A stretch of DNA of 64,000 bases from a virus, in IMG/VR virus record IMGVR_UViG_3300017991_000003, positions 129,019-193,018 of that record, one strand, 5' to 3'. Under the pieces are notes generated by a model. It made no database searches. It saw nothing but the letters and a program-made list of their open reading frames with translations, and had not been told where the DNA came from. Positions 14,059-62,306 of the stretch are shown one piece after another. Both the position numbers and the translations under genes were made by a program. How positions within the stretch are numbered: position 1 is the first letter of the stretch; each line of letters starts with the position of its first letter.

Positions 14059-14081
14059 CTGGCACTGGCTCCCAGTGTCAG
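14059..14081 (-). repeat. inverted-repeat element copy E (CTGACACTGG-gag-CCAGTGCCA in minus orientation), terminator-like
   Basis: Plus strand reads ctggcactggctcccagtgtcag; on the minus strand it is followed by CCTTCTTTTTT (U-tract). Lies about 16 nt beyond the stop of gene 14097..14465 and shortly after the stop of plus gene 13340..14044. Confidence 0.5.
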
Positions 14082-14096
14082 TCTTCTTCTCGCGGC

Positions 14097-14465
14097 TCAC
14101 TCGGAGACGGCTCCAGCGGCTCGCATGGCCAGCGAGTGCAGGTAGTCGTACCGGTCCTTGAAGACATCGAAGGCCACAGTGCGGAGCTCGGCCTGGACCC
14201 AGGTGGCGTACTCGACCGGCGGTTCTTTCTGGATCAGCTCTTCAACGATCTCCCGAGGGAGGTAGGCGATGATCCAGTTCATGTCGTCCACGCGTCCCCC
14301 AGATCCCGGAGGTCCGAAGCCCAGCTGGTGCACAGCGTACTGAGCGCTTTCGATGAAGTCCTCGGGAACGTCGAAGTCGTCTCGCCGGCCAGCAGCGAGC
14401 ACCATGGCGGCCCAAGCCGCGTGGATACCTTGCCGGTACCCGCGCAGGTATTCGTCTTTAGTCAT
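14097..14465 (-). CDS. hypothetical protein (122 aa)
   Basis: Complete ORF; 8-nt overlap with upstream gene. Confidence 0.5.
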   Translation of the reverse strand: MTKDEYLRGYRQGIHAAWAAMVLAAGRRDDFDVPEDFIESAQYAVHQLGFGPPGSGGRVDDMNWIIAYLPREIVEELIQKEPPVEYATWVQAELRTVAFDVFKDRYDYLHSLAMRAAGAVSE

Positions 14466-14850
14466 GGTTAGGAGGGGTTTGGCAGGTCTGGTAGATGCGG
14501 GCCATCTGGTCGAGCGCCGTCAACCGGATGGTGATGATCTTGCGGGCCACGTTTGCGACGGTCGCGCCACTGCCCTGCCGCATCGACAGCTTGTGCGGCC
14601 GGGTCTGAAGGAGCTCAACGAGGTCCGTGTGAGCGAGGCGCTCGCGGAGGTCGGTGACGTACTCCGTGAGGAAGCCCTGAAGCTCCCCCGGCGGGTTGGC
14701 GGTCAGGACTGCCTTGGCCCTCGTGGGCGCGGTCCCGTCGAGCTGGCTCTGGAGGCGATCCCCGAAGGGAATCTGGGAGACCAGCTCGGCCCAGAGCCAG
14801 TCCCGGGCCAGGACCGCTGCCTGGCTGTAGATCTTGTCGGCGTGCTTCAT
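14458..14850 (-). CDS. hypothetical protein (130 aa)
   Basis: Complete ORF; start codon immediately adjacent to the second copy of the 42-bp element. Confidence 0.5.
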   Translation of the reverse strand: MKHADKIYSQAAVLARDWLWAELVSQIPFGDRLQSQLDGTAPTRAKAVLTANPPGELQGFLTEYVTDLRERLAHTDLVELLQTRPHKLSMRQGSGATVANVARKIITIRLTALDQMARIYQTCQTPPNHD

Positions 14851-14892
14851 GTTGGGTGGTGAGGGTGTCTCCGGGTAGACATCCCCGGATCA
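14851..14892 (-). promoter_or_regulatory. 42-bp conserved upstream element, copy 2
   Basis: Exact 42/42 match to 13184-13225, abutting the ATG at 14850. Similarity continues weakly for about 13 more nt (aaggactcatgac vs ttagacttatgcc). Confidence 0.6.
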
Positions 14893-15302: not shown

Positions 15303-15306
15303 ACCG

Positions 15307-15711
15307 GTGGATCTGGGGGTCGTTCAGGTCTCTGATCAAGTCCTGACCCCGGGCCTGGGGGACGCTCCGGTCCGGGTGTCAGGTCTTCGTGCCCTCGTAC
15401 AGCAGGCGGTCATCGAGCTCATCTCGAACCCCCTGCCGGAGCGAGGGCGCGGGGCTGGGCTAGCTCAGCTCGTTGCAGCCCTGCCTCCCCAGAACCAGGC
15501 ACAAGCTCGTGGCACCTTTGCGCAGGCCGTGAGCTCCGCCAAGACGCACATCTTGGCCAACCAGCGCTACGCTTCCAACCTCACCGCGAACGAGCGGCTG
15601 CAAGACATGACCCTGCTTCGGGCCGAGCTCAATGGGCTCGTCTGGGAGATCGACATCAGGATCACCAACGTAGCCGGCGAGTCCGCCACCTTTGCCCTGC
15701 CGGTCAGCTGA
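15307..15711 (+). CDS. hypothetical protein (134 aa)
   Basis: GTG start 4 nt after upstream stop; 1-nt overlap with the next gene. Confidence 0.45.
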   Translation: MDLGVVQVSDQVLTPGLGDAPVRVSGLRALVQQAVIELISNPLPERGRGAGLAQLVAALPPQNQAQARGTFAQAVSSAKTHILANQRYASNLTANERLQDMTLLRAELNGLVWEIDIRITNVAGESATFALPVS

Positions 15712-16778
15712 TGACGTCCCACAAGAGTACCCACAAGGACAAACTACCCGGCGGACTTGCGGACAAGATGCGAGATGCCGTCTTCGCGGCCTCCGCCCTC
15801 AAGGCGGGAACCAAGGTGGAGATGGAGCATACTGATGATCCGCAGCTAGCCAAGGAGGTAGCTAAGGACCATCTCGCCGAGGATCCGCAGTACTACAAGA
15901 AGCTGCGGAAGATGGAGAAGAAGGCCGGTGGCTACGCCACCGGCTCGGTTGAGGTCGCCTCGCAGGTAGGTCGTAGGGTCTTGCCCGCCTGGAGCCGGTC
16001 GAAGAAGATTCCCGCGGGAGCGAAGCGTGCCGCAGGTATGGTTAGGCAGCAGCCGTTCGCCCCTGGTGGGAAAAACAGCCTGATCCCCGCTTCGTCGACG
16101 ACTCGCAAGCCGCTCCCGACCTTCACCTCGACATCCAAGCCGATGAGCATGGCCAAGGCCGCGATGCTGCAAGGCATGGTGAACACGCTGGCTAAAGAGG
16201 CGGGGTGGGTGGATAAGCTCAAAGGCGGAGCCAAGAAGGCTCCCGGTGTGATCGCCCGAGAGGGCGCAGGCATCGCAACGTGGGGAGTCGGGGAAGGGGT
16301 GGCCAACAAGCTCATTCCCCGGTGGAAGCCCCCGACCCCGCGCGTGAAAGTGGCTGGGGTTGATAAGGAGGCCATCCTTCAGGCCTTGCTATGGGCGCCG
16401 GCCCTGTATGAAGGGGCCAAGGCCGCCGGCCGCGTAGCGGCTAAACCGTTCAAATCCCTCAAGCGTGGGCTAGCCCCGAAGAGCCCCAAGATCCAAGGAC
16501 CGCACCCTGAAGTGCGCGCTGCGAACACCCCTGAGGTGGCTAAGGTCGCGGTATGGGGGACGCTCGCCCGTGTGGCTACTAAGCTGGCCCCTCGATTGGC
16601 TAAGGTGGCTCCGAAGACGAGTGCCCGTCTAGCGACGGCTACGCCGCAATCTACCAAGGCGCTCGCAGGACGCGCCGGTAAGGCGGCTGCTAGGGATGCG
16701 GCGCTGGGAGCCGGTACGATGGGCGCAGCTAACGCGGCAAGCCACGTGGCCCGACCGAAACGCCCTAACCCTCTGTAG
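15711..16778 (+). CDS. Lys/Ala-rich basic protein (355 aa), possible internal virion or DNA-associated protein
   Basis: Complete ORF; repeated AKxxxK segments; conserved-looking N-terminal block KVEMEHTDDPQLAKEVAKDHLAEDPQYYKKL. Confidence 0.5.
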   Translation: MTSHKSTHKDKLPGGLADKMRDAVFAASALKAGTKVEMEHTDDPQLAKEVAKDHLAEDPQYYKKLRKMEKKAGGYATGSVEVASQVGRRVLPAWSRSKKIPAGAKRAAGMVRQQPFAPGGKNSLIPASSTTRKPLPTFTSTSKPMSMAKAAMLQGMVNTLAKEAGWVDKLKGGAKKAPGVIAREGAGIATWGVGEGVANKLIPRWKPPTPRVKVAGVDKEAILQALLWAPALYEGAKAAGRVAAKPFKSLKRGLAPKSPKIQGPHPEVRAANTPEVAKVAVWGTLARVATKLAPRLAKVAPKTSARLATATPQSTKALAGRAGKAAARDAALGAGTMGAANAASHVARPKRPNPL

Positions 16779-16787: not shown

Positions 16788-19700
16788 ATGGCTGAGTTCA
16801 AGGACTGCCAGAGCCCGAGCCCCCTGACCGGGCGGATCGGCCCCGATCTGATCGAAGAGGTTGGCGGGGTCTCTCTGGCAGGTGTGTTGGCAGGCACGGA
16901 GACGCTGCCGGTTGGTGCAATCCCTGTCACAGCCCCGCTTTATGACAGTCCGAGCCCTACAGGTACGGCTATTGGACTGCGGTTGGATTCGAGCCTGACG
17001 GTTGATGCCCAGGGCCGGCTCAGTATTGCTGGAGCCCCATCGCCCGCGGCCCACGCCTCGAGCCACGAGCCTGGCGGGTCTGATCCGATCACCCCTGCTG
17101 CCTTTGACGGGCTTATCACCCCGCCGGTCGCCACGACGGTTGTCCTTGGCGGTGTCAAGGACGGTGACGGCGTCTCGATCGCCGGTGACGGCACCCTGAC
17201 CCTCGATCTGGCCGCCGCCAGTGGCCTCGAGATCAGCGGCGGGACCCTGAGACTGGCACTGGGTACCGGTGTCAGCTTCAGCGGCAACGATCTGGTCCTG
17301 GACGAGGCCACGGACTCCACGCTGGGCGGCATCATCGCCGGCACGGGTCTATCAGTCAGCTCGGGTACGGCGAGCCTCAACGCCCCCCAAGTCACGGGAG
17401 CCTCCCTAGCGGGCAGCACTCTGGTCTGGGATACCAGCCCGAGTGCCCAGAGTCCCAGCCCTGCTCTGAGGCTTCCGGCGAGCTTCACGTACACCAAGGC
17501 GATCCCGCAGTCGCAGCTGCCGACCGCGGCCTACGGCAGCCCGGGCAGCTCGAGCCCCAGCCCGCAGCTCGGCCTTGTCCGCATCTATGGCCCGAGCGAG
17601 GGCCTGACGCTTAGCGATGGGCTCCTGTCGCTGGCGACTCCGATCAGCACGGATCACCTACCCACCGCTACTGGTCTAGGTGGGCGAGGCATCGTCCGCG
17701 CGGGCCTACTTGACGGTACGGGCGTCTACGTCTCCAACAGTACGACCGGCCAGCTGGCGATCCTGATTGACGCCACGTCGGACACGTTGGCGTTGTCGTC
17801 GAGCGGGATCAAGGTCAAGTCCAATCGCTTCCTGGCGCTGACTGGCACCGGTAACCTCCCCAGCCCCGCGGCGAGCCCGAGCCCGGGGACTGACGGCTGG
17901 ATGACCGGGTCGGTTCGATTCACCAACGACCTGGGTGAGCCTGCGATCCGCACCGGTAACCAGCGGATCCGCTACGAGTTCGGGGCCAGCCCGTCTCCCG
18001 GGGCGATCCTGGCATCGGCTGATCTAAGCGATCTACTAACGTACCAGGAGATCAGCACACTCATCTCCCAGGCTGAGCTTGGTGTCGAGGTTTGGACTCC
18101 TGGGCGACCTGTGCAGGCAGAGCCGGGTACGAGCCTAGGTGCGTTGGCGGAGCTCTCGGCCGGGGATCGGTTCCTTACGAGCACGTCGTCCAACACCAAC
18201 CCCGGCGGTGACTGGAATGCGCACAACTGCGTGTTCGCGGTCTGGACGGAAACGGCTCCCGATACCTTTACCTGGGTCTATGAGACCCCCACGGTCAACA
18301 CCTGGTTCACAGACGACGTAACTGGGGACACGTGGGCTGTTGTTGTCGGCTCCCCCTCCCCGAAGTCGCCCTCACCGAACCCGTCGCGAGAGGCTTTCCG
18401 GTATCGCGCTCGTCAAGATGACACAGCATCGACGGCCCGAGCTGGTCGCGTGCGTGTCCCGACGACCAGTGGCCTCGTCATGGACGGCGAGGATATTCGG
18501 CTATCCCTCGCCTCGGACATCGGGGTCAGTACGGGCCTGCGTCTGATCACCCGAGCTCGCAACAACGCGCTAGCTCTCGATCTCAGCCGGTCCCAAGGGA
18601 TCTTGGAGCTCAACTCCGACGGGCGCCTTCAGGTTGCCGCGTCCTCGATCCAGGCCACGGAGATCGCGGACAACACCATCGTCCTCGACAACCTGGCCGC
18701 GGATCAGGTGACAGGCGGTACCAAAGACTTCATCGCCACGCAGTACGACGGGCTATCCGTCCGGCTGGTGGGGGACTCGGAAGACTTCCGCGTCACTGGG
18801 GCGCCTGTCAGCACGGCTACGACCATTCTGATCCACACCGAGGACGGTATCGGTGTGGCGGAGGAGTCGATCAACACTGACGCTCTCTCGGACGAGGCGG
18901 TTAGCTACAGCAAACTCCTGATGCCCACGGCCTCCGGTCTGGAGGACAACGGGCAGGACAAGGTCCGGGTCAAGCTCCAGACCCGCAGCGGCCTCGAGCG
19001 AACGGTGGATGGCCTGGCGGTCAACATCCATGACGTGGTGGACGATGCCACGATTGAGCTCGACACATCCACGGGCGGCTTGCGCGTCAAGACAGGTAGC
19101 CTGACGTCGTCGTACTTCGCGTCGGGCCTGGCGATCTCGGCCTCGGTCCTCACGCTGGGAGCCCCTATGCTCTCGTCGAGCGGGCTCCTGACCTTCTGCT
19201 ACCAGAGCCCTCTGGTCCTGACCGGCAGCCCCGGCTGCTTGACGATCGGCGAAGGCTTGATCAGCTCGCCGTATCTCGGCACCGGGTCGGTCAGCTACGC
19301 CAAGCTCAAGCTGGCGAGCCCCTCCGGCATCACGCAGACGGCCGGCGGTATCAAGGTCGACATCTCGACGGGTCTCGCCTTCAGCGGCAACCAGATCGTG
19401 GTCGACCAGGTGCCGGCAGACGCGATGGCACTGGATGCGGATTCGGCGTTGTACGCCGCTAGCCCGACCAGTCCGCTGACGCAGCTGGAGCTGAGCATCC
19501 GGGTCAGCAGCCCGTTCACGCAGACGGGTGGTACGCTGGATCTAGCGGACGAGGGTGTTCAGGTGAGTCACCTGGATCGCTCCAAGCTGCGCGGTAGCTT
19601 CCTGGCCAGCGGCCTCGAGGCCGGCCTAGGTACCCAGACCAGTCCCTTCGACTCTTGGGTCACGAGCCCGGCGTTCTACACCGGCTCGGACGCCCCGGGT

Positions 19701-25013: not shown

Positions 25014-25035
25014 AAAAAAGAGCCCCGAAGGGCTC
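25014..25035 (-). terminator. intrinsic terminator (hairpin plus U-tract on the minus strand), possibly bidirectional
   Basis: Plus strand AAAAAAGAGCCCCGAAGGGCTC; on the minus strand GAGCCCTTCGGGGCTC is followed by TTTTTT. About 20 nt beyond the stop of leftward gene 25057..25560 and a few nt after the stop of plus gene 22723..25011. Confidence 0.55.
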
Positions 25036-25056
25036 CTAGACCTTGTTCGGGCCTAA

Positions 25057-30739: not shown

Positions 30740-30801
30740 TGTTCGGTCCGTGGTAAGAGAAACAGGCGTCAGTGGACTTATGCCACGGACGCCTGCTCTA
30801 T

Positions 30802-30824
30802 CTGGCACTGGTACCTAGTGTCAG
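30802..30824 (-). repeat. inverted-repeat element copy F (CTGACACTAG-gta-CCAGTGCCA in minus orientation)
   Basis: Plus strand ctggcactggtacctagtgtcag; the TGA stop codon of the HTH gene 30821..31021 is the TGA inside the element. Confidence 0.45.
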
Positions 30825-31021
30825 CCTTCGTACAGCTTCTGGACCGATGTCCCCAGCGCCTTGGCGATCTTGCTCATGGTCGGCCACTTAGGGATGAAGC
30901 GGCTGTGCTCGGCAGCGTTGATGTACTGACGCTCTTTACCTACACGTCGACCCAGCTCAGCTTGGCTCATATTTTTAGCCTCGCGTAGCTGGGCGATTCG
31001 ATCTCCGGGGGAGTCACTCAT
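30821..31021 (-). CDS. helix-turn-helix transcriptional regulator (XRE/Cro-CI family)
   Basis: MSQAELGRRVGKERQYINAAEHSRFIPKWPTMSKIAKALG is a typical HTH_3 motif; 66 aa. Confidence 0.6.
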   Translation of the reverse strand: MSDSPGDRIAQLREAKNMSQAELGRRVGKERQYINAAEHSRFIPKWPTMSKIAKALGTSVQKLYEG

Positions 31022-31883: not shown

Positions 31884-31941
31884 GGGCTGGTCTTAGGAGG
31901 AAGGCCTGGCTCGCAGTGCAAGATAGACACCGCTACGAGGC

Positions 31942-43000: not shown

Positions 43001-44256
43001 TCCAGCCCAAGTGGGGTCTCGCGCCCTTCTACACGAGCGACTGGATTTTCGACGGCGGTGTGATCATGAACGTGGGCGTCGAGCATGGCGTCTACCTCCA
43101 CAACACGGTCGGCGACACGCGCTTCAGCAACACGATCATCACTCGCGTGGGTCGGACGGCCATCCAGAAGGCCGATCGACGCATCGAGAACCCCTACGAC
43201 CCGGTCCTTGTCGGCACGGGCGGGGACACGGGCGGCCCAGGTCAGGGTCAGGTCATCTACCGCAACGTGCAGGCATCCGAGACGGCGCTGAACGACGGTG
43301 GCGGGTCCTACACCATCGTGGGCCACGGCCCCGACGGGCAGATCACGATGGAGAACTGCTCCATCCGGCAGGGCTTCGACGACCAGCTTGCCGCTCACCG
43401 CTACATCAGCGGCAACGGCATGTTCGGCACCATGTTGACGGTCTGGGGCGGCTGGTTCCCGGGCTACTCGGACCATAGCTTCTGCCTGACGGGCATGGGC
43501 TATCAGTTCGACGGCCTGCGCCGGTGGCATCCGTTCTTGCGTAAGGCCGACGGTAGTTCGGTGTTCACCAACGACGAGTACCTCACCCACCTGACCAACA
43601 AGTACGACGTGCTGGGTCTTTCGGGCGTGCTTGGGGACTACGGTGGTGTCCCGGTTCCGACACCTCCCCACTACACCAACCTGCTCTACGGCGCCCCGAT
43701 GTTCTCCTACGGGGGCGTGCAGGACCTGGGCCTGACTCTGGGCCAGGAAGCGGCCGGTATTCGCGAGCCCGTCTTCACGGGTACGGACGCGACCTACGGG
43801 ATGGGTAGCCCCACCTACGCGAGCTTCCATCAGACGGGCACGCTCACGATCACGGGGTGCCTCTTCGAAGCTAACCACCCGAACGCCACGAGCGACGCCG
43901 AGGTTACCTGGTCGCAGCCCCTGCCCAGCCTCAACCCCTACGGCTCGATCTACAAAGGCGGTACCTACAGCTCGGCGCCGGCGCTGCTCGTCAGTGACGT
44001 GCGCATCCTGACCCTCCAGGACAACATCATTCACCAGACGGGCAACCAGGCGATCCAGTTCGACGAAGTGGCCTACGTCTGGGACAGCCCCCAAGCCAAG
44101 GCCACGGGCAAGGCGACGAAGCTCATCACCAAGAACGCCGCTATCTGGCAGATCCTGGGCGGCAACAACGAGCTGATCTCCGCCGCGGTGGTCAAACGCT
44201 ATGGCCAAGACGCTCCGGCGGAACTTGTGAGTCAGCTAACGAGCCCGAGCACCTAA
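34036..44256 (+). CDS. giant fibre/adhesin-like protein (3406 aa) with Ig-like (IPT/TIG-like) and LamG-like segments
   Basis: Single 10.2-kb open frame with GC3-rich codons. Two IPT/TIG-like segments (PTLTSIDPDNIDQGAQTLTLRALGSNF...TYVSPGEL...; APYASNP...TLTYVSPGEV...) and a LamG_3-like signature (SFKGYLDEYRLYLGTELSSPEITTLYNAG). Antisense ORFs inside are artefacts. Confidence 0.65.
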   Translation: MTSDKVFQSDSLFDYLPSYWKSSFGDRPVLETVYEALVRSMDVDWVRLFAANDTRELATTPVTTTHTLVHQPLGSWTSLEVAHGHYHTWLDWPAATGSPETYVIRLEDHVLTRPRLFFDGRAIPSFLYRLDTSHWSSGGSVVYGTTITFDKAQLDSFLDGSYLSLQGQSGENTSQEWTPADVIERLGILAYRDQRPFTGSGDASTTAFEFTIGGSAAVVEAFDAMAYVESIDVTSRVTVAAVTGGFSITPKPAGGFGAGMLLQATFDDDSQQLVELDSGTGSVTLRTSASSVTGVRLFVNIPLGEQHYTVTSSAVELLGGAVFPGGTILRVKDAKGIQSKTLTEPRSRVTFDRDIDTNSAQVLYQGTDVLATEVSTSGITFERPLNSGARWRVDAPVVVDHDHALYRTATDGTANIAIPTARPLTLAGSATDEDYPILLFVDGVLQDPSTYSPSSTVNLVLQSPLPSGIPVDVWYVDQEEPAEHLHSELSDVVPLSVPEQYSVSYSQAETFDDTTWPLTVFRDGFLENDPDQIRTVDGQFLQFTDALTPGIRVAADGLRTEFRYAHTIPHREDLDYGYRGDIQEIGTLQDGVMSPSSVKSPDTGFSLTPAASPAETATLKASITWDEAWLTGVKVDEHLLETTWGDPVGIKRPVSSTRYRNLLMAVYAAYRGPSFVDSLVNVSSILLGSAFLPTAGVSGGITRSSTGVQVLIEPTDPKESPYTVDLLPGEEHRILPAPREMSRLRAVNSLATVSDRSLDDIPWLAFMAQDVAEDYSYAKRLDVRSSSSFSSIPAGYDKTTGHLTDYSVNYNDQEVWVGDLIKLTLVASASPTSIIQTYTSDGTSPQQVQRLVYDSSQPTARLRAHVASPAVSTYKPGHYVNLEGAGSPWDTLTGEYYQLTNVSPGYAASTTRLTAEWISSHAAPTITAVDYTASPYPELQGYNLSQSTSTPDFQSYTQFTTVQEVLGDHTIRVSFDATSEVTGYGDETYGELGFGGGVLDPVPSAYTIWSRRTRQLDTYLSLDQALDESVALVPGETVQILNEELSALLSTHVFAMELAWDRMTDRETLEDLKVVIDRIRPAETRALVYTEGFPTLSLEMTGSLIGGSPDITETLADSLFLEESWMGTGSTALLTPELNYLYRPWQHRFGPRLESQLKEPPASPVVGGFYAVAPVGQASHLGVWASVYGSKGLEGQVLRRGSPDEWLVDSGFSPAPGWALDFSSGVRRLNSGPFTHNEGSPLTMRALVYVPSGSYSEAGTVYVGQASPMLPFGFEVQSPGLTLAPFFQVHSSETKALGSPTNYYDRWLDLVGVYREGAASYWYTDLYLDGTLIATSSPTGAASLTLAPSATFSLTLGGTTQSTPTQSPSFKGYLDEYRLYLGTELSSPEITTLYNAGSPVMPSIGVTDAGSPIAPAGITAWYVGQEHDPATVIDLSGNGYNASRQTATLGDENQDWRVAGYLQTRYRLFGDTYEIKLGGYYVDQGKLTTTLLGTPPSLLSDSPDSQTAAIDAGGQPLLIPGVFGFKDVVYTNQTRWLHYKDLEGWIITLANPQAPGSAISVDQEGNLGSQSPTTALASPLSITGSRLTLTCAAGSGGAVTQLELDGSPLLVNTLKGQLTQWSCRYLGRGFERTVSEAGKISRPVAQPSNSDFISKESGDTAIRTASYLGNIQGTMTYDGTLYDSSATRLDKLMEVGFNANPNVIRVDAIFDRDQSTKDGSWYSQFTMSLVPELNVAWLYQPGVDSVPLPAVFNGDVNYQTNWVGGAIYTNAAQDKAVGVFHRRPNTDTGWFQSQVLPAPASAVSKSSPGSTSYSVLNDQEFLGDYPGAADSIWRTERYIVSGTLTEVVGGFNQLAYELEGIEPIVTGPESATYIEFTSLPDPLTLGDTFSVTAQAFGPGGLIDPNFDRQAYLTLLTPGGTLTGTTTGTFASGEVTFSGLEVSPGGTWFLQVDSGGLAPGQAAIQVNNPAPYASNPTAWAISPAQVPLTLYGTDFLDTSFVVYSNWGGTPSPYPSTLTYVSPGEVQFTPPQEILDSYPNTLTLSVHNPGPGGGSTGELPLTIGSPGVPSPVVPSPVADLLLFTAPPSLPITPRVGENTLIGGYAADSTLSLALDVDATGAVTVSPSAQPAGSSIGGTLTQSLGASIPGYVFFPNLTFDTAGTYTLNLVHESPAVIAQTPLALNLSVLNPVPTLTSIDPDNIDQGAQTLTLRALGSNFVSGDSSIYWNGLQRTTTYVSPGELRTTLTAADFLVPQVVGVKVNTAQGGGDSSTIPFTINGAPGSGLTEEDLSPTIIVLSPSAYQRVLPTQGPVITTEEGVSLHRALEQTGLATAGTPIHAYDGSVGAIEVVEVRAGAYKAMATGDDVFKSDKNRNVAVPHAPDSDHPLIIRAAKWSAARAPEPDMVGDPEPYVLVARFPDFGSEDVIFHDRSLESSHWHWYDPILFLGSRGGMLIADNKIYGANDPTIPWLGWHMYRPKVLGRYDHRVYRLDSDRWIVGPGPDTASITQYDTTGVEISPKSWDLDDLHRARFGKRLTSSNGITSGFASLTSVPAGQITATHVGVFGNDADTLYRVGVASTAGGLIQTDLGLLSVFSSDAALTTSDFIASAPFDPITSPNQYASPPSLSYSMDVTWQSSSTFDAVPGAGGTIQFYDRKDDETLSPSTLLTAGGTVNVPLEQGIGAAFMAFTGRGCYVLKTTVKDEWGNPVPDPEDPDKDLTRNSIIQVTNHGMSDSPTSLEVVYDLPDQEMLWFSNITWAAGQNIGFMGPFSLLLEARTSSGALSMEVDGTVQVLIDSFETVEGTAIGTPFLSSNEITHIMRGGVCHIRDLHPYITSINPESFQAFLDQNSASNYAILTLTLTPFGTGTGLDSQSTTYQIGVWPPGAQRGESPGSIPVPFSVYPWGARLTDKEWLGPNLNEFALTLAPSDTIQGMESGAPVNAKVKTAIGLPFWAGWPGSPGHPNYRPGYENIWPKPEHTPGLEYIGYPTFDVQPKWGLAPFYTSDWIFDGGVIMNVGVEHGVYLHNTVGDTRFSNTIITRVGRTAIQKADRRIENPYDPVLVGTGGDTGGPGQGQVIYRNVQASETALNDGGGSYTIVGHGPDGQITMENCSIRQGFDDQLAAHRYISGNGMFGTMLTVWGGWFPGYSDHSFCLTGMGYQFDGLRRWHPFLRKADGSSVFTNDEYLTHLTNKYDVLGLSGVLGDYGGVPVPTPPHYTNLLYGAPMFSYGGVQDLGLTLGQEAAGIREPVFTGTDATYGMGSPTYASFHQTGTLTITGCLFEANHPNATSDAEVTWSQPLPSLNPYGSIYKGGTYSSAPALLVSDVRILTLQDNIIHQTGNQAIQFDEVAYVWDSPQAKATGKATKLITKNAAIWQILGGNNELISAAVVKRYGQDAPAELVSQLTSPST
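38065..38086 (+). repeat. inverted-repeat element copy A (CTGACACTGG-ctc-CCAGTGCCA) inside the giant CDS
   Basis: In frame within the LamG-like region, encoding SLTLAPSAT; 25 of 28 nt identical to copy B including flanks. Confidence 0.5.
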
Positions 44257-44304: not shown

Positions 44305-44326
44305 CTGACACTGGTAGCCAGTGCCA
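44305..44326 (+). repeat. inverted-repeat element copy B (CTGACACTGG-tag-CCAGTGCCA) downstream of the giant ORF
   Basis: Begins 48 nt after the stop at 44254-44256 and about 20 nt before the next start at 44346; 10-bp stem with 3-nt loop. Confidence 0.5.
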
Positions 44327-51063: not shown

Positions 51064-52142
51064 GCCAGCGCTTCGCCACCACCCACCAGGCGGTCAACCT
51101 CCTGCGTAACGGGAGCCTCGAGATGGTCGAGGCCCTGGACAGCGGTGCGCAGAAGCCCCATTTCTGGTCATTCGACGCCCTGATCCACGAGGCGCTTCAA
51201 GATGCGGTCGTGGTAAACACCTTCGAGGTCCTTCAGGAGGATCCTGGACCGGCCCCGGCTAGCCGGTTTCGTGTGGAGCTTGTCACGGGCGAGCCCTCCA
51301 AGCTCTATCAGGACACGACCCGGGACGCCTCGGTCCACGTCCAGGATTTCCCGGTCCCGCTAGCGCCGTCGTTGAAGCCGGCGCTGCCGCAGGGCCACTT
51401 TTCTACCGAGGTCCACGCCCTCCCCAAGGGGGATTACACGCTCTCCTTCGATGTTCGGGCCTACCAAGGCACCGTGTCGATCGATCCAGCTGCTTGGGAC
51501 CTCGTCGGAGCGGTGCAGACGCCGACCTACCCCACTGGCCAGACTTCCGTGACACTGGGAGCTAGTGCCATCTGGCGCCGGATCACCATCCAGTTCTCGG
51601 TCGACTACGCCCTGGGCGGTGTCGGGCTCCAACTAGAGCGCACAACGTCCTCCGGTCTGGCTGTGGTAGAGATCGGCAACGTCATGTTGGCTCAGGGGCA
51701 CTACCGCTACCTTCCGTACACCGGCGACCCGCTCCTCTCGGCCATCCCCAAGGGGGCGATCATCCTCACCATGGGGTCTGTGTGCCCTCCTGGCTTCGAG
51801 GAGATCGGCGAGGATGGTCTTGAGCCTCTGCCTGAGTGGGTGGCTGATGAGCCCAACATCCTGGCACGCAAGGGTAACTACCCGCGCGAGGGCACGGAGC
51901 TAGTGGGAACGACCTCGCATACTGTGGATGCTGTCGAGATCACTCCGGGCACCACGGATGCGCTCGAGTTCTCCGGTCCCGACAGCAAGGTGGTTGATGG
52001 GACTCTCGTCGACACCTCCAAATCCAATCCGGCGACGGACGAGCCCGGCGGGTCTCAGGGCGTCCCGGAGCATGATCACACGATTGAGACGGCAGGTACG
52101 CGGCCGGTGAGCCGCGGCTACCTCCTTTGCCGGCGCATCTGA
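51060..52142 (+). CDS. tail-fibre/receptor-binding-like protein (360 aa), member of a three-gene paralog set
   Basis: N-terminal NLLRNGSLEMVEA; C-terminal AIILTMGSVCPPGFEEIG followed by PEHDHTIE and an ending GYLLCRRI, shared in pattern with 52142..56359 and 56363..57481. Confidence 0.55.
   Translation: MSQRFATTHQAVNLLRNGSLEMVEALDSGAQKPHFWSFDALIHEALQDAVVVNTFEVLQEDPGPAPASRFRVELVTGEPSKLYQDTTRDASVHVQDFPVPLAPSLKPALPQGHFSTEVHALPKGDYTLSFDVRAYQGTVSIDPAAWDLVGAVQTPTYPTGQTSVTLGASAIWRRITIQFSVDYALGGVGLQLERTTSSGLAVVEIGNVMLAQGHYRYLPYTGDPLLSAIPKGAIILTMGSVCPPGFEEIGEDGLEPLPEWVADEPNILARKGNYPREGTELVGTTSHTVDAVEITPGTTDALEFSGPDSKVVDGTLVDTSKSNPATDEPGGSQGVPEHDHTIETAGTRPVSRGYLLCRRI
51549..51570 (+). repeat. inverted-repeat element copy D (degenerate, GTGACACTGG-gag-CTAGTGCCA) inside a CDS
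   Basis: In frame within gene 51060..52142, encoding SVTLGASAI; same phase as copy A. Confidence 0.4.
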
Positions 52143-55100: not shown

Positions 55101-56359
55101 CCGAGTCGGAGCGTGTGGCTCTGTGGAATAGCGGGAAGGGTCTGGCCCTGGCACCGGCCGAGCTCCAGAGTCGTCTTGTCACCGAGGTGCGCTTCGATGA
55201 GGGCTACGGCTCCACGGCTGTGGACTCGGCCCCGGTCAACTGGACAGAGCCCGTCCAGCTGCAAGGCGCCGCCTCGTGGACTACGGGTCACGTGCTGGCC
55301 TTGGGCGGCTCAGACTTCGGGACGGACGACTACCGCGCGCCCTTCGAGGACAAGGCGCGTAGCTACCTCGTCACCAAGGTCGAGTCGATTCTGGTCGAGG
55401 CCGAGGGCGCCTTCGCCAGCGGCATCCCCTACAACCCCTCGGCCAACCCGGTTGGTAACGGGCTCGGGGACGTGCTGTACCCCTTCTCGGTGTCTGAAGA
55501 CGATCTGATGGAGGGGGATAAGACCATCATGCCGCTCGGCCCGGGCCTCACAGGCCAGTCGGCCACCTTCGATGGTGGGGCGGTGCTTTCTGGGCAGTTC
55601 TGGAACGGCACGTCGAGCGGAGGGCTGTTCTCGACGATCACGATGCGGAACTTCGGATCGCAGCCGTCAGATTGGAACCCGCAGGTGGGCGACGTCTACT
55701 TCCTCCAGTGGGAGAGCTCAGACAACCCCGGCCTGGCCCTCGGATGGTTCCCGGCACGTCTGACCGACATCACGATCGAGACGGGTATCCCGGTGTACCG
55801 CTACTACACCTTCCAGCGGTATGACGGGCGCAAGATCCAGCTGACCCCGGCCGAGTACCAGCAGCTCAGTTACGAGGACGCGTTGTCCGGGGACAAGGGC
55901 ACGATCACGGTCCGCCCGGTCAAGCTCTTTGGCGACGGGGAGCAGGTTGTGGCATCGGAGACCGGTGCCATCACTCCGCAGGCTGTGACCATCTCGGAGA
56001 CCTTCTACAACTCGACGCGCTACTGGGTGGTACGCCGGCTGAGCAACAACCTCGAGCTCGAGGTCAAGGGCGACCTATCCATCCCCACCGGTCAGACTGA
56101 GATCCATGTCGAGGCCACGGGCTATCTGCGCTACGATGATCCTGAGGACAAGATGGACTACGGCGCAGGCGGACACAGTCACCGGGTGGGTGGCGCTCTC
56201 ACGGCTACCGACGATTTGATCCCCAGGATCTCCGAGACCGGTTCCCTGGCGTCCGAGCCCTATCAGGCTGTGGCGCAGGATCACGACCATGGGTTCCAGA
56301 GCGTCTTCCGGTTCCCGCTGCCCAAGTTCCGCCTATTCACGGCCTGCCAGAAGCTCTAG
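52142..56359 (+). CDS. giant tail-fibre/adhesin-like protein (1405 aa) with LamG-like signature
   Basis: ATG at 52142 (TGATG overlap). N-terminal NLLRNGSFSQGVAHWW; LamG_3-like signature (HIDNFRVFDLSSQEMTESERVALWNSG); C-terminal VVLYAGGGTCPPGFKRV, GGHSHRV, QDHDHGF, ending FTACQKL. Confidence 0.6.
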   Translation: MEVNTLNQRNALNLLRNGSFSQGVAHWWGSYLRHKRSSGGQTLGSNAPEYALEVFQAQDTSYPDSVTPGAHQWVDRPDLFTYPSQRLVSGLRLIPFTDDRALLQVVPELTAMDGVVLAEPDAAEIPTYSDIFQHPFVHLEPDGTRVNIEAGSVLPLTDTRRPESSGLYRVGSFLENRNGTGVASDYDPSNYHEYTYHGLEINPLSGGSYKALMTHETSGVVTAAITAEASGLYTVVTISVDKDVVRGLDREQPGYTPELGLAVGDVFTMTEPVLRSGVITQVAISDDQTVVTLIPLANYGDYVVTPFVEDVTPEAWSIYATSVATVRRTMPLYAYDFTLGYTCRINDGYSAPAETSMVARTLSGTGTLVGTGTVGAEIPRIGGKRKIVNLLIDEDTVDGAWQRRLERHFREASAPLEGRIDLSVLPPAGSEDSYPTPTSKLPDSVYWYFFTDLDGELPNLNDPPESIEDTPHFQINIPVDENNLPPAEWLAGNKEFTVTPFGDTSELEEQFSWIIPLLLVPSFTAQAALLEVPDETYPALLKLYVAWDTDEFGAFPSVDGFNIGWNSTVTATWGFNVKGLNGSGARALVSDVFMTHGDQAQRLEKLDDTALPVTGPLTDDVSIDPLRHGVDLLENVIPPGAVVLYAGGGTCPPGFKRVESFPDAAVAGIGSDADLTLTDATVVYDTARDRTKITWTGREFPLYDDDGGVIPIPELALSVSKPIPGIPDSLQEVKFTPSQQVVQPGMAVRVPEFLMDSTITETDPLFSSETLGKAMRAVGGWAQLHRPEEPLFSRLGVELWFQTQSSITTSGDERLSWIFRQAKKVGDDVISWGLLYVTSGTDGGKLEWRVETVGSLGARTDVYRMTTAALPVSGFAGDWMHIIVEFSAPNSGTVGEPGQGVTPDVRITFSDTEDSYGTLIESHNFGVVQAGADLAKGAVLRLGHTPEVDGALGTSSYTDPVTGNLITLAAKHIDNFRVFDLSSQEMTESERVALWNSGKGLALAPAELQSRLVTEVRFDEGYGSTAVDSAPVNWTEPVQLQGAASWTTGHVLALGGSDFGTDDYRAPFEDKARSYLVTKVESILVEAEGAFASGIPYNPSANPVGNGLGDVLYPFSVSEDDLMEGDKTIMPLGPGLTGQSATFDGGAVLSGQFWNGTSSGGLFSTITMRNFGSQPSDWNPQVGDVYFLQWESSDNPGLALGWFPARLTDITIETGIPVYRYYTFQRYDGRKIQLTPAEYQQLSYEDALSGDKGTITVRPVKLFGDGEQVVASETGAITPQAVTISETFYNSTRYWVVRRLSNNLELEVKGDLSIPTGQTEIHVEATGYLRYDDPEDKMDYGAGGHSHRVGGALTATDDLIPRISETGSLASEPYQAVAQDHDHGFQSVFRFPLPKFRLFTACQKL

Positions 56360-56362
56360 GTC

Positions 56363-57750: not shown

Positions 57751-60700
57751 CCTCCGGATTCTCACCGAACTCCTTCCCCTGGCCTTCGCCGGCGAGGCGT
57801 ACTCTGTGCGCCTTCAGGCGCGGGGCGGGACCGCTCCGTACACCTGGTCGGTTCAGTCGGGCACCCTGTTCACCGGGATGTCGCTGGATTCGAGCACTGG
57901 AGAGCTCACCGCGGCTGCCAGCGCGCTACTAGGTACCGAGGTAGGGGATCGTACGATCACGTTCCGCGTCACGGACAGCCTAGCGGCTACGCATGACCTC
58001 GAGGTGACGCTGACGCTGCGCCCGGCGAACTACCGCCGAGCCACGGCGCTCATGCTGGACCCGCGCCTGGAGCGCATGCTGTCCATCTGGGATGTCGGCG
58101 TGGCCACCCGCGCTCAGATCACGGCACACTTCGCCCAAGGGCCGAAGTTCACCAGCATCACGCCGGCGGGGACATTCAAAGAGGACGTCTGCGTTCACTA
58201 CGCGGACCAGATCTGCTACGGCCAGACTCCCGCCAGCCCCGCGAGCCCCGGTGCGAGCCCCGGCCAGACGGTCTGGGACAAGATCCAAGAGCTCGATGGC
58301 GGCGGTAAGGTCCTCGCCGAGCCCAAGATCATCACGGTCAGCGCCTACAGCTCGACCGAGATCAATACGAGCCCGCAAGAGGTGGTGGGTTTTGGGCCTG
58401 ACGACGATCTCTTGGGCGAGGGCCTGGGTGTGCGCGTCGTCGGTATGGACGAGGGTCCGGTCTACGGTAGCCCTGAGAACACGCTGGGCTATTTCGCCCT
58501 GGGCCAGCGCTTCACGCTTCCGGCTGAGGCGAGCCCCTCGAGCGTCACCCTGTACCTCAACCGGTTCAGCAGCCCCGCCAGTCCGGGTAACCTGACCGTC
58601 GGCCTGTCGCTGGCGAGCCCGGGTAACATCCAGATCCCCGCTGGTTCGTCCTACGCTGCGTTCGGCGACGGCTCCGCGGTGGTGGCCTCCGGTACGCTGA
58701 GCCTTGCGACGGTCTCGAGCGACGCCTCCCGAACCAGCTGGACCTCGGCGCACGCCTACGACATCCCCCTCACGCTTCAGAGCCCTTTCACGGGTCTGGA
58801 TGCGAACCGCAACTACTACCTGACGATCGCTGCTGACTTCGCCGGCAGCCCGTTCCTGGAGATTGCGGCCAGTGTGGACGACGTGACGAGCCTTGTGGCG
58901 GGCAGCGAGGCCATCGCCCTCACCACGGCCTTCGCCACCTCGAGCCCGTACTACAGCCCCACCTCGGCGGCGAGTCCTGCCCTCAAGGCGCCCTTCGAGC
59001 TTGCTACTAGCCCGCAAAACGTGACCGGGTTGGCCTTCGGTCTCAACGCTGGCTGGACCGGTGCGACTGTCGGCATCGTCACGCTTGCCGAGGTGGATCC
59101 CTACTCCGGGAGCCCGGCGACCAACGACCGGTACTGGGTGGGTGAATCCACGGCCACGGCCGCCGATGTGCGGGCCATGGCCTTCCAGTTGATCGACGGC
59201 TACGACCGCACCGGCTCGAGCCCGGTCCTGGACAAGACCAACTTCAACGAGTACGTCGATGCGTACGGCAACCAAGCCAGCATCGTCGAGGCTCAAACCA
59301 CCGCAGGGGCTGAGATCAACCCCAGCGGCGGTGGACAGACAGACGCCGACGGCTTTCTCTCGTCCGGTGGCGCGAAGCTCAGGGTCCAACTTCTTCCCAA
59401 CTCTCGCGGTACTGTTCCTGAGCTTCCCTTCCGAGTGCTTGCGGGAAGCCGTCGGCTGCTTTCCAACCTAGGCGCGGACAGCCTGATCCGCACCGCCAAC
59501 AAGACCGGCTCGACCGATGCTGAGGTCCTGGCGGCGCTGAACCTCACGAGCGCTTCCAACCCGCTTCTCAGTCTCAGCCAGACGCTCAAGCCTGACTCCT
59601 CGGGCAACCTGGAGCTCACGGTCAACAGCGGTGCGTTGGCGTGGAACCTGAACCCCGGCTCCTACACGGCTGAGCTTCAGTTCAACGCCCAGCTCCGGGC
59701 GGCGGCTCTTGGAAGCCCCTCCGGCTCGGTCGACTTCGACAGCAACGGTGTTCTGACTCTGGACGCGGCGGACAGCACGATCACGCTGACACCGGTTCCC
59801 GGTTCCAACAAGATCCAGATCGCTGCCCAGGTCGGCATCACGACCCTCAACACCGTCGACCCCGACGGCTCGGGCAACCTGACCCTGGTGGCGGACGAGG
59901 ACTCGAGCCACGCAGGCCAGACCTTCATCACGGTCTCGGCTGGCTCGGCCCCCAACACCGTCGAGATCGGCACCGCCATTCCGGACGCCACGACCAGCCT
60001 CGCTGGTCTGCTCTCCACCACGGACAAGCAACGCCTGGACGCGCTGTACGCTGGTAGCGACGACGTGACGACGGCAGGCACTGGTGCGCTGGCTGGTGGT
60101 CATGCCCACGAGGCCACTGCGCTCAACCTGGGCCGCACGCTGACCGGCTATTCGACGCTCCTGAGCTCGATGAACATCGCCGATGCGCTCGAGGCCCTGA
60201 ACATGGTGCTCTACGCCCAGTTCAGCCCGGCGTCCGAGGCTCCGAACCTCGCCACGGCGACCACGAGCTTCTCGGCCTTTGCTACCGGCTACCTAGCGGA
60301 CGACTCGAGCACCATCGACTACTCGAGCCCCGGCTACGCGGCTGGTGATCTAGTCACCACGCTGGTCGAGAGCACCGCTGCGACGGTCTTCACGGTCACC
60401 AGCGCCCCCTTCGGTAACCCGGGCAACTCCGGTACGGTCAAGGCCCAGCTCTATGACAGCCCCGGCGCTACGAGCCCTTGGGTCACGCTAGACACCATCG
60501 ATCTGGACCAGACCTACTCGAACTCCCTGTCGGCGATCGGAGGCAGCCCGCCGAACTACACGTCGGTGGCGAGCCACATGCAGGCCAACCCGCTCAACGA
60601 GGCGGGCAGCCCGACCACCAAGATCAGCTTCCAGGCGGTCTCCTATAGTGGCCTGAGCACGGCCGGCGCCCCTGTCTTCCAGCTCCAGGTCAAGACGACC

Positions 60701-62281
60701 CCGGTGCTGTCGGACATGCAGAACGCGCTTGGCTACAACCAGGTGCGCCTGTTCCAGGACACCGGTGCGACGACCCATGCCTCGACCGCGGTCACGCTGG
60801 TCAAGGACAACTACCAGGGTGTGAGCGATCCGATCATCAACCAGTCGGACCTCGTACCGCTCTCGAGCGTCACTCCCGTGTGGGTCAGTGGTGTGCCGCA
60901 CTACGCCGCGGCGACCGATCCGGCTTTCCGCGTGGATGCGGACAGCTTGTTCGACATCGCGTACATCCAGCAGCCTGTGCGGGTCTGGGATACGGCGGAC
61001 AGCCCGACCGAGATCACGTTCAACTACTACGATGCGGCTGCTGCCAGCCCGTCGGACGCTACCTGGATCCCGAGCCCCTCGACGCCCTTCCGTCTGGGTG
61101 TCGTGGGTGAGCCGTATGCGGTGACCGCTGAGGACATGACCTTCCTGGTCGGTACCGATGAGGTCTCGAGCCGGCTCCTGACCCTGGAAGTCTCCGATCC
61201 GCACGGCGTCCAAGCCTCCCAGGCCTTCGCCTACTTCGATGCGGCGTCCAGCCCGGGCCGCCTGATGCACTTGGGTCGTGGCGGCCTCTCGAGCGGCAAC
61301 CTGACGACCGAGTACTTCACCAACGAGAAGTACCGCCTGGACATCAATGACTACGCCGGGGTCGACTTCGCAAGCCCCGTGGCTAGCCCGAGCTTCACGT
61401 CGATCACCGTCCAGCCCTCTGGCAACGGCACGACCGATGCGGACACCTACGGCTGGCCCAACGAGTACGCGCTGACCACCTTCTCGGCCACGAACACCTG
61501 GAACGCGACGACCGGTAGCCCCAGCGCCGAGTTCCGAAGCGGTGTGAGTGTGACCTACGCGGCTGGTACTCTCAGCAGCCTGCCTGCTGCGGTGACCGAC
61601 TTGGGTCTTGTGCACCCTGGCTACTGCTCGCTCTACAACTTCGACGAGAACCTGTACGCCCCGGCGGCTGCGAGTCCCTACAACACGTACGCGGCCCACA
61701 GCAGCCCGCTGGGCTACTACGACGCTTACAGCGCGCAGGGCTCGGTGGTCTACCACCGCCTCTTCCAGAGCTCGACGGCCACCAACCAAGGGCGTCTCAG
61801 GATCTACGGCTACAAGCGCGGTACGGCCAGCCCGACGCCGACGGTCCTCTCCTATGAGAACGTCGGCAGTCCGATCACGCTGAGCGACTTCACGGGATCC
61901 TTCCTCAATGTCGGCCCGGCTTCGAGCCCGACCCCGACGATGAGCGGTATCAGCCTTGAGGTCAAGTTCCCGAGCGCCACCAAGACGCCCAAGGACAACC
62001 CTGGCGCGACTGGCTGGCTCGACATGCTGACGACCCCCGGCTCGAGCCTCTACGCGCTCGGCGAGGACGGCTACGGGTGCGCTGACACCTCGGTCCACAG
62101 CCCCGGCATGGTCCAGGGCGCTGGCTACGTGGATGTCTACTGGCGCTCCGGCTCCTTCACCACCGGCCTGAGCAGCAACCAGGCGGTGGTTCGTGTGGGC
62201 ATCCACGACAAGGAGTGGGTGATCACCAACATGCAGATGCTCAACCAGAGCACGGACACCCCCTGGACCAACGGCGCCTGA
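57743..62281 (+). CDS. giant fibre/adhesin-like protein (1512 aa)
   Basis: Single 4.5-kb open frame; Ser/Thr/Ala/Gly/Pro-rich with many ASP/SPxSP motifs; antisense ORFs inside are artefacts. Confidence 0.6.
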   Translation: MADLRILTELLPLAFAGEAYSVRLQARGGTAPYTWSVQSGTLFTGMSLDSSTGELTAAASALLGTEVGDRTITFRVTDSLAATHDLEVTLTLRPANYRRATALMLDPRLERMLSIWDVGVATRAQITAHFAQGPKFTSITPAGTFKEDVCVHYADQICYGQTPASPASPGASPGQTVWDKIQELDGGGKVLAEPKIITVSAYSSTEINTSPQEVVGFGPDDDLLGEGLGVRVVGMDEGPVYGSPENTLGYFALGQRFTLPAEASPSSVTLYLNRFSSPASPGNLTVGLSLASPGNIQIPAGSSYAAFGDGSAVVASGTLSLATVSSDASRTSWTSAHAYDIPLTLQSPFTGLDANRNYYLTIAADFAGSPFLEIAASVDDVTSLVAGSEAIALTTAFATSSPYYSPTSAASPALKAPFELATSPQNVTGLAFGLNAGWTGATVGIVTLAEVDPYSGSPATNDRYWVGESTATAADVRAMAFQLIDGYDRTGSSPVLDKTNFNEYVDAYGNQASIVEAQTTAGAEINPSGGGQTDADGFLSSGGAKLRVQLLPNSRGTVPELPFRVLAGSRRLLSNLGADSLIRTANKTGSTDAEVLAALNLTSASNPLLSLSQTLKPDSSGNLELTVNSGALAWNLNPGSYTAELQFNAQLRAAALGSPSGSVDFDSNGVLTLDAADSTITLTPVPGSNKIQIAAQVGITTLNTVDPDGSGNLTLVADEDSSHAGQTFITVSAGSAPNTVEIGTAIPDATTSLAGLLSTTDKQRLDALYAGSDDVTTAGTGALAGGHAHEATALNLGRTLTGYSTLLSSMNIADALEALNMVLYAQFSPASEAPNLATATTSFSAFATGYLADDSSTIDYSSPGYAAGDLVTTLVESTAATVFTVTSAPFGNPGNSGTVKAQLYDSPGATSPWVTLDTIDLDQTYSNSLSAIGGSPPNYTSVASHMQANPLNEAGSPTTKISFQAVSYSGLSTAGAPVFQLQVKTTPVLSDMQNALGYNQVRLFQDTGATTHASTAVTLVKDNYQGVSDPIINQSDLVPLSSVTPVWVSGVPHYAAATDPAFRVDADSLFDIAYIQQPVRVWDTADSPTEITFNYYDAAAASPSDATWIPSPSTPFRLGVVGEPYAVTAEDMTFLVGTDEVSSRLLTLEVSDPHGVQASQAFAYFDAASSPGRLMHLGRGGLSSGNLTTEYFTNEKYRLDINDYAGVDFASPVASPSFTSITVQPSGNGTTDADTYGWPNEYALTTFSATNTWNATTGSPSAEFRSGVSVTYAAGTLSSLPAAVTDLGLVHPGYCSLYNFDENLYAPAAASPYNTYAAHSSPLGYYDAYSAQGSVVYHRLFQSSTATNQGRLRIYGYKRGTASPTPTVLSYENVGSPITLSDFTGSFLNVGPASSPTPTMSGISLEVKFPSATKTPKDNPGATGWLDMLTTPGSSLYALGEDGYGCADTSVHSPGMVQGAGYVDVYWRSGSFTTGLSSNQAVVRVGIHDKEWVITNMQMLNQSTDTPWTNGA

Positions 62282-62284
62282 TCA

Positions 62285-62306
62285 CTGACACTGCTGGCCA
62301 GTGCCA
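62285..62306 (+). repeat. inverted-repeat element copy C (CTGACACTGc-tgg-CCAGTGCCA) immediately after the 1512-aa ORF
   Basis: Begins 3 nt after the TGA at 62279-62281. Read in the upstream gene's frame, the post-stop sequence encodes SLTLLASASYQPS then TGA. Confidence 0.5.

Follow-up and report, generated by a model that had tools for sequence, protein, structure and literature searches.

The DNA described here is a 64,000-nt window (positions 129,019 to 193,018 of IMG/VR record IMGVR_UViG_3300017991_000003) of an uncultured jumbo phage genome of ~193 kb (193,018 bp), and its subject is a short near-palindromic element dispersed through this window in many copies. Genes were mapped with a codon-usage caller trained on the window's long open reading frames (ORFs). 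Two genes recur in what follows: a giant gene, preceded by a gene for a 685-aa gp47/JayE-like protein that has homologues on many 130-190 kb contigs, and a small gene for a helix-turn-helix (HTH) protein (Table 1). No relatives of the window were found by DNA or protein search among 50,697 GenBank phages, and sequence searches of PHROGs, Pfam and PDB assigned next to nothing of its large proteins to a family.

Copies of the element were sought on both strands with the pattern CTGACACTGG-N3-CCAGTGCCA, allowing up to 3 mismatches and using dinucleotide-preserving shuffles as the control. The window gave 19 strand-matches, which correspond to 12 distinct sites where the shuffles predict 0.04; a transition-tolerant pattern added one symmetric copy at 55949, for a window total of 13. 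Written as a duplex, the 23-bp site is CTGACACTGGTAGCCAGTGCCAG. The original prediction, made from the letters of the window, had listed six copies and judged them far beyond chance. All six were recovered at the same coordinates and strands and the judgment is borne out by the shuffles, but the count was too low, as 6527(-), 17254(-), 34882(+), 35305(+), 36502(+), 59786(+) and the symmetric 55949 copy had been missed. The sole other public sequence with exact copies is a 91.6-kb IMG/VR contig (L002-L004) from Joint Genome Institute (JGI) sample 3300018080. Although this contig has no proteins in common with the window, we rejected the idea that two unrelated phages share the motif: because its terminase and a 473-aa protein map to the 193,018-bp contig, it is another part of the same genome. 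It adds three exact copies and one weak copy, while the 8-9 kb beyond each window end add one clear and one weak copy. The window, both flanks and this contig together sample ~113 kb of the phage genome, with a total of ~17-18 copies.

Table 1. Copies of the dispersed element and associated features (window coordinates unless a locus is named)
Feature	Position	Strand	Description
Giant gene	34036..44256	+	3,406-aa ORF, Ser/Thr/Gly-rich, structural-looking; directly after gp47/JayE-like baseplate gene
XRE/Cro-type HTH gene	30821..31021	-	66 aa; Pfam HTH_3, E=2.7e-11; candidate cognate binder
Intrinsic-terminator-like hairpin with U-rich tail	30752..30798	-	~10 nt downstream of copy 30803
Copy	6527..6548	-	CTGACACTCCTAGCCAGTGCCA; 2 mismatches, inner stem gone; intergenic, divergent region, 3 nt upstream of ATG of gene 6092-6523(-); preceded by weak hairpin and TTTT
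Copy	14060..14081	-	Exact; convergent intergenic region, 15 nt past stop of 14097-14465(-)
Copy	17254..17275	-	1 mismatch; within 1,262-aa gene 16788-20576(+), the only copy antisense to its gene; no counterpart in homologous gene of relative C
Copy	30803..30824	-	1 mismatch; motif TGA (30823-30821) is the HTH gene stop codon
Copy	34882..34903	+	3 mismatches, 1 to the transition-tolerant family pattern; giant gene codon 282, frame CTG ACA; only in W lineage
Copy	35305..35326	+	1 mismatch; giant gene codon 423; only in W lineage
Copy	36502..36523	+	Exact; giant gene codon 822
Copy	38065..38086	+	Exact; giant gene codon 1343
Copy	44305..44326	+	Exact; intergenic, 48 nt past giant-gene stop and 19 nt ahead of conserved GTG start of 479-aa gene
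Copy	51549..51570	+	2 mismatches; within 360-aa gene 51060-52142(+), frame 0
Copy	55949..55971		Weak, symmetric, GTGGCATCGGAGACCGGTGCCAT; within 1,405-aa gene; orientation undefined because pair 4:20 is G-C
Copy	59786..59807	+	Weak, 3 mismatches; within 1,512-aa gene; pair 8:16 compensated (C-G)
Copy	62285..62306	+	1 mismatch; intergenic, 3 nt past TGA stop of 1,512-aa gene; no counterpart in relative A
Copy	L002 9510		Exact; motif TGA is the stop codon of the sigma-70-family sigma-factor gene
Copy	L003 6135		Exact; convergent region, past large terminase gene
Copy	L004 5736		Exact; close to a gene's 3' end
Copy	L039 13632		In 23-nt gap between two face-to-face intrinsic terminators

Among the strong copies of this genome (16), no variation occurs at positions 2-7 (TGACAC) and almost none at positions 14-22 (CCAGTGCCA), while the three central bases are free. 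The sole pair that differs between the arms is A4.C20, found in 14-16 of the 16 strong copies and in 14 of the 17 copies aligned from this genome. As this pair is A.C on the motif strand and G.U on its complement, it is the complementary strand that folds better in each of the 16 copies, and several sense-strand hairpins have little stability (-2.3 to -6.8 kcal/mol). Four of the 16 copies lack G9 and G10, and C14 and C15 show no compensating change. Outside pairs 4:20 and 1:23, the non-Watson-Crick pairs on the sense strand are 10 G.U and 6 A.C, with no strand bias. The uniform 10-bp stem of the original description does not hold, given the mismatch at 4:20 and the uncompensated loss of two inner pairs in several copies.

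The comparison with related phages that the original prediction had proposed revealed lineage-specific variants at shared positions. Four lineages with 78-80% JayE identity were compared, namely W (the window genome), A (L005, L046, L050), B (L040, L041) and C (L042, L047-L049), with three more distant loci (L043-L045, 66 kb in total, JayE identity 52-57%) as an outgroup. Each lineage has its own version of the element: CTGACACTGG/CCAGTGCCAG (TGACAC...GTGCCA) in W, CTGGTACCGG/CCGGTACCAG (TGGTAC...GTACCA) in A, CTGATACTGG/CCAGTATCAG (TGATAC...GTATCA) in B and GTGGYACYRG/CYRGTRCCAC in C. Both arms thus change together between lineages. The family pattern TGRYACYRG-N3-CYRGTRYCA, with at most 1 mismatch and a chance expectation of at most 0.05 per sequence, has 12 matches in W, 2-3 per 15-22 kb in the relatives and none in the 66 kb of outgroup DNA, where no analogous dispersed motif was found either. 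Across 24 aligned copies there is no variation at T2, G3, A6, T18, C21 and A22; pair 5:19 occurs as C-G in 17, U-A in 4 and U-G in 2, and pair 8:16 as U-A in 17, U-G in 4 and C-G in 3. The covariation score of this alignment was reached by 0 of 500 shuffles and exceeds that of every slid control. The near-identical lineage C assemblies L042 and L047 differ within one intragenic site (6234 and 5955, respectively), where position 4 is A in the former and G in the latter; it is the position that is asymmetric in the window genome.

Several positions are shared between lineages. The HTH stop codon, or the base directly after it, is marked by a copy in W, B and C, and the intergenic stretch that separates the giant gene from the 479-aa gene in W and A. 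Within the giant protein, alignment column 823 corresponds to a copy in W (36502), A and B, and columns 1366-1368 to one in W (38065), A and C with a 6-nt offset. A weaker shared site lies in a 342-aa gene (W, A). Other copies are lineage-specific gains (codons 282 and 423 in W, codon 314 in C). At column 823 the changes in the arms alter the encoded residues (LTLVASAS, LVLVAGTS, LILASTIS) and the palindrome is kept. The intragenic copies on the sense strand are read in the frame CTG ACA CTG G...CC AGT GCC, in which ACA accounts for only 5.5% of Thr codons and AGT, present in all but one of them, for 7.6% of Ser codons; this use of rare codons points to selection at the nucleotide level. The giant protein itself has only a weak IPT/TIG match, and its homologues in the relatives (3,400-4,231 aa) include some with a weak Laminin_G_3 match.

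This pattern of conservation bears on whether the element is a selfish or mobile miniature palindrome, similar to repetitive extragenic palindromic (REP) or miniature inverted-repeat transposable elements, or a host repeat, in either case with no function for the phage. REP elements are short imperfect palindromes that are dispersed and often intergenic, and the element resembles them in these respects. We nevertheless consider such an origin very unlikely. Among 185,579 species genomes, none contained more than 1 exact copy and the 20 scattered single matches are about what is expected by chance, while a scan of JGI metagenomes returned unrelated single matches only. Intragenic copies substitute for homologous codons without any indel, positions are kept across lineages while the sequence shifts in concert, and no transposase or REP-associated tyrosine transposase was seen.

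The placement of the copies is not random. Five of the 13 window copies (6527, 14060, 30803, 44305 and 62285) are intergenic, which is a strong enrichment (p=4e-4) because intergenic DNA makes up only 5.5% of the window, and four of the intergenic copies lie 0-48 nt past stop codons. The remaining eight are intragenic, four of them within the first 4.1 kb of the giant gene. The original description of the element as one positioned at gene 3' ends is correct for 14060, 30803, 44305 and 62285, whereas 38065 and 51549 are inside ORFs; with most copies intragenic and 6527 just upstream of a start codon, it is not chiefly a 3'-end feature. Orientation cannot be scored between convergent genes; of the 12 copies that are informative, 11 are co-oriented with transcription (p=0.003), 17254 being the exception. 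The random placement and orientation that had been named as grounds for refutation were thus not seen in the window. Relative B has two asymmetric copies, which have opposite orientations (n=2). All 12 oriented window copies are on the (-) strand to the left of ~32 kb and on the (+) strand to the right of it, and the switch coincides with a change in GC skew.

This flip of every oriented copy would suit a DNA site with a function other than transcription, such as a centromere or KorB/ParB-like organizing set, a Ter-like polar barrier to replication forks, or a recombination or packaging signal. Two traits typical of parS-type sites are found here, namely intragenic positions that are conserved between lineages and a copy at the 3' end of a gene whose product is a DNA-binding protein; sites that are read as sequence and not as structure also fit. 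We consider this explanation unlikely for the following reasons. First, orientation is confounded with gene direction, and GC skew does not follow the motif strand in L002; a link between the element and replication or GC skew was rejected on the latter ground. Second, no ParA/ParB, Tus/RTP or recombinase domain was detected in the scanned proteins. Third, the intergenic enrichment and the closeness to stop codons are left unexplained. For recombination in particular, site-specific exchange from copy to copy is excluded because the spacers differ among copies.

Orientation and placement could also indicate that the element acts in RNA. Here, a transcribed hairpin (6-bp stem, 3-nt loop, A.C internal mismatch and 3-bp base) would be bound or cut by a phage RNA-binding protein or nuclease, with a role in mRNA-end processing, stabilization or factor-dependent termination. 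The agreement with the direction of transcription, the four copies just past stop codons, the copy kept in relative A ahead of the 479-aa gene start and the covariation of the arms are all in keeping with this, as are the copies that adjoin intrinsic terminators (30803, B 5489, B 8645 and C 1987). The A.C mismatch, being fixed, would in addition be a natural feature for hairpin recognition. We regard this as a possible but doubtful explanation, and on the sequence evidence we favour the reading of the element as duplex DNA. The loop is unconstrained between invariant outer blocks, and where inner pairs are lost there is no compensation and the sequence of C14 and C15 is retained. The sense hairpins are weak in several copies, with the opposite strand folding better in every strong copy, and G.U pairs are not in excess over A.C pairs. 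One copy is located between two terminators (L039 13632), where little RNA is expected, and 17254 runs antisense to the gene that contains it. Scans of the window proteins detected neither an RNA-binding nor a nuclease domain. The presence of a homogeneous private variant in each lineage likewise favours duplex DNA, such variants being the mark of sites that follow the specificity of a reader encoded by the phage.

Ordinary intrinsic (Rho-independent) terminators that share a stem sequence by chance would account for GC-rich hairpins past stop codons. The copy at 14060 in particular resembles a bidirectional terminator because its flanks lengthen the stem and a T-run follows. We find this explanation hardly credible for the set as a whole. 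Only this copy (14059 in the original prediction, which had noticed the same) has a U-tract among ~17, so that the combination of hairpin and U-tract is absent from nearly all, and eight window copies are inside ORFs. Canonical terminators of unrelated sequence exist in the same genome at 25018-25037, 30752-30798 and L039 13590-13700. The second of these, a separate terminator beside copy 30803, has a conserved GGCATAAGTC motif in its loop and shows a compensatory stem change in relative C. Conservation of sequence and not of structure, in lineage-specific variants, would not be expected of terminators. As versions of their own are found at the same places in the closest relatives, the element is most likely the target of a phage-encoded regulator and not an ordinary terminator, and the earlier suggestion of a protein-recognized site in place of a generic terminator is supported by the near absence of U-tracts, the free loop, the invariant half-sites and the concerted variation.

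Early promoters of phage N4 are hairpins with a 5-7 bp stem and a 3-nt loop located upstream of early genes. The copies might by analogy be promoters for a virion RNA polymerase, for which the 3,406-aa protein would be the candidate, or promoters for a phage sigma factor. The 6-bp stem and 3-nt loop fit this geometry, it is the template strand that folds best, both a giant protein and a sigma-70-family factor are encoded and the copies are co-oriented with genes. We consider it highly improbable nonetheless. Three copies are in convergent regions, where a promoter would yield antisense RNA only, and others are inside late genes. The giant protein, with its Ser/Thr/Gly-rich composition and its position behind the baseplate gene, contains neither polymerase motif B nor other motifs of T7-like or multisubunit RNA polymerases, and it has no PHROG or PDB match and no Pfam polymerase match. 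The loop base is not conserved, and the spacing of the conserved blocks is unfit for -35 and -10 elements. Two further candidates were rejected: CTGACA as a sigma-70 -35 element, as no consistent -10 follows, and a selenocysteine insertion sequence or readthrough role of the in-frame TGA, as stops follow at once at the HTH gene and the TGA is mostly out of frame. The sigma-70-family factor (L002 9528-10376, minus strand) is 282 aa in length and matches Pfam regions 2, 3 and 4.

If the element is a DNA site for a phage protein, the 66-aa HTH protein is probably its reader. In the scanned window proteins, no DNA-binding domain was detected apart from those of two 66-aa HTH_3 proteins. The gene at 30821-31021 adjoins JayE in all four lineages and its stop codon is tied to a copy in three of them; at the three outgroup loci (66 kb) it is absent, as is the element, and a wider search for this HTH family returned the four known lineages only. 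Its recognition helix is KERQYINAAEHS in the window and KERQYVHG(A/V)E(Q/R)G in the relatives. That this is an HTH gene with a copy at its stop is confirmed by the Pfam match and the position of the motif TGA. The original prediction had named two HTH proteins as candidates: this one is reasonable in view of the stop-codon link and the co-absence, while nothing ties the other (12355-12555) to the element.

Some observations concern the surroundings of the HTH gene. On the minus strand, 31920-31948 contains a good sigma-70-type promoter (TTGACA-17-TATCTT) for an operon of a 285-aa gene and the HTH gene; it diverges from the structural operon, and the 89-nt control region has no copy of the palindrome. 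In relative A, L005 2787-3052 contains two clusters of 12-bp tandem iterons, CCTTTGCTAA and CCTTTACTAA, with nine copies in total, two of them inverted. These are ~0.8-1.2 kb downstream of the HTH gene and resemble an origin or an operator array; nothing comparable is present in the window.

Based on these results, we tentatively propose, with a confidence that falls just short of even, that the copies of the element are dispersed sites which serve as operators or roadblocks and are bound by a DNA-binding protein of the phage that co-evolves with them, probably the HTH protein of 30821-31021. The reader would recognize two invariant outer half-sites, xTGRYAC ... GTRYCAx, that flank a free 3-bp center, and it would most likely bind as a dimer of the 66-aa XRE-type protein. 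Such sites would be positioned at the boundaries of transcription units, often beside intrinsic terminators and in one case directly upstream of a start codon, with further sites inside the long late/structural operon. The bound protein may then act as an operator or roadblock in the manner of a stoperator, insulating or silencing units at some stage of infection, and the fixed A4/C20 asymmetry may give the sites a polarity relative to RNA polymerase. Three parts of this proposal are inferred: a reading as duplex DNA, the HTH protein as the reader and an effect on transcription.

A number of observations weigh against this proposal. The fixed A4/C20 asymmetry of W is not predicted for a homodimer; this asymmetry, the orientation bias and the closeness of copies to stop codons and terminators suit a reading as RNA or as a single strand, or at any rate speak against a simple homodimer. 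The same holds for the distance of ~15 bp between the half-site centers, which a simple HTH dimer could not easily span from one face of the helix, for the recognition helices of relatives B and C, which are identical although the site consensus sequences differ, and for relative A, which keeps the HTH gene without a site at its stop codon. The covariation of the arms is equally expected of a hairpin. The main divergent promoter region at 31884-31971 contains no copy. Finally, neither an integrase nor any other lysogeny gene was seen in the ~113 kb sampled, and a stoperator-type role in immunity is therefore without support.

A more specific form of the proposal, which we put forward as speculation and consider improbable, is that the sites of a lytic jumbo phage form a polar system of barriers or insulators, specific in sequence, that acts directionally on RNA polymerase or on replication forks. 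Its reader could be the Cro-sized protein, or another factor that recognizes an extruded or transcribed hairpin with its A.C mismatch. Site and reader would have to co-evolve fast enough to give each close lineage a private code, and the copies in the 10-kb structural gene would be kept by selection even though they entail rare codons and altered residues.

Non-coding DNA also contains a second conserved motif, G(G/T)GGCAT(A/G)AGTC(Y)N(A)YTGA(Y), which was found in the window at 13182-13267, 3340-3400 and 30750-30800 (all on the minus strand), in L002 at 9324-9409 and in the relatives at L040 5380-5440 and 8590-8640 and L042 1940-1980. Start codons follow it at a distance of 42-57 nt and a terminator or the palindrome comes just before it, and in two cases it is within a conserved leader of ~85 nt with the hairpin CCGGGGA-TGTCTA-CCCCGG. 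This motif looks like a phage-specific promoter or leader, possibly for the sigma factor of this phage.

Other features of the window were also noted. The operon that starts 3 nt after copy 6527 includes a gene (4487-5107, minus strand) with a weak match to IrrE/ImmA-type M78 peptidases (E=1.4e-4). Two adjoining tRNA-Leu genes with anticodons TAG and CAA are encoded at 3986-4232 (minus strand). A cluster of the glycan-modification type at 8534-11628 (plus strand) encodes a sulfotransferase, two SAM methyltransferases and two family-25 glycosyltransferases. Two plus-strand genes are conserved in relative C: 15711-16778, which encodes a DUF5661 protein with a long Lys/Ala/Pro-rich, histone-H1-like tail, and 16788-20576, which encodes the 1,262-aa protein, fibre-like with SPSP repeats. 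A 238-aa PAS-domain protein is encoded amid structural genes at 49612-50328 (plus strand).

Experimental work on oriented, dispersed regulator sites has been done mainly in temperate actinophages, and a comparable architecture appears here in an uncultured clade with a genome of ~193 kb. The four lineages, each with a private site variant and a matching small HTH protein, constitute a natural experiment from which specificity-swap tests are easily designed. The element also gives access to the boundaries of transcription units and to regulation in a group of phages that has no cultured member and whose proteins are almost all unannotated. Finally, it offers a case of putative regulatory sites maintained inside a giant structural gene against codon preference.

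A search of the open-access literature on palindromes of jumbo phages returned nothing usable, and the comparison below is with better known systems. Terminators, REP elements and N4 promoters share with the element a GC-rich, hairpin-forming inverted repeat with a short loop, often past stop codons. The element differs from them in having no U-tract in all but one copy, in not being a host repeat, in occupying locations where a promoter makes no sense and in being apparently read as sequence with a free loop. With operators of dimeric HTH proteins in general it has in common inverted half-sites, a fixed spacing, a free center and concerted change of the half-sites. KorB OB sites of IncP plasmids and the C1 operators of P1 are sets of a dozen or more high-information sites for one protein that are spread over a replicon, some at promoters and others far from promoters or intragenic, with no rule of orientation relative to transcription. 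KorB and C1 belong to other protein families (ParB-type and C1), and no ParA/ParB was detected in the scanned proteins here.

The conserved inverted repeats (CIRs) of the Streptomyces phage phiC31, which are bound by the c repressor, are likewise a many-copy set in a high-GC phage, and are mostly intergenic, between a terminator and the next promoter. They are 17 bp in length, confined to the early region and without a fixed asymmetry, and the c repressor is a large, multi-isoform protein of a temperate phage. We know of no position-conserved intragenic CIR copies in structural genes. The window element resembles the CIRs, but it is a member of neither the phiC31 CIR system nor the stoperator system.

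The stoperators of Cluster A mycobacteriophages (bound by L5 gp71 or the TipsytheTRex repressor) comprise more than 20 motif copies, which occupy promoters and the short intergenic gaps close to start and stop codons and whose orientation is strikingly correlated with the direction of transcription (PMC9283540). Among related phages, motif variants are reported to co-evolve with each phage's own binding protein (PMC6550527). The window element is similar in that it is dispersed in many copies, follows the direction of transcription, is found in part near start and stop codons and varies by lineage. The Cluster A site, known from temperate phages, is an asymmetric 13-bp sequence bound by a ~183-aa monomer that combines an HTH with a "stoperator" domain. 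In contrast, the window site is a 23-bp near-palindrome with covarying arms, its copies are mostly intragenic (8/13, with 5/13 intergenic) and its candidate binder is a 66-aa XRE-type HTH protein of a ~193-kb jumbo phage in which no sign of lysogeny was seen. The original label of stoperator-like is thus apt for dispersal and orientation bias, but strictly the element does not qualify as a stoperator, because its site is a near-palindrome where an asymmetric site for a monomer would be required. Dispersed site sets for phage regulators are already known as a kind; new are a near-palindrome with fixed polarity, copies kept in a giant structural gene and a jumbo phage without sign of lysogeny as the setting, and the new evidence, drawn from sequence comparison, is conservation with concerted variation across an uncultured jumbo-phage subclade.

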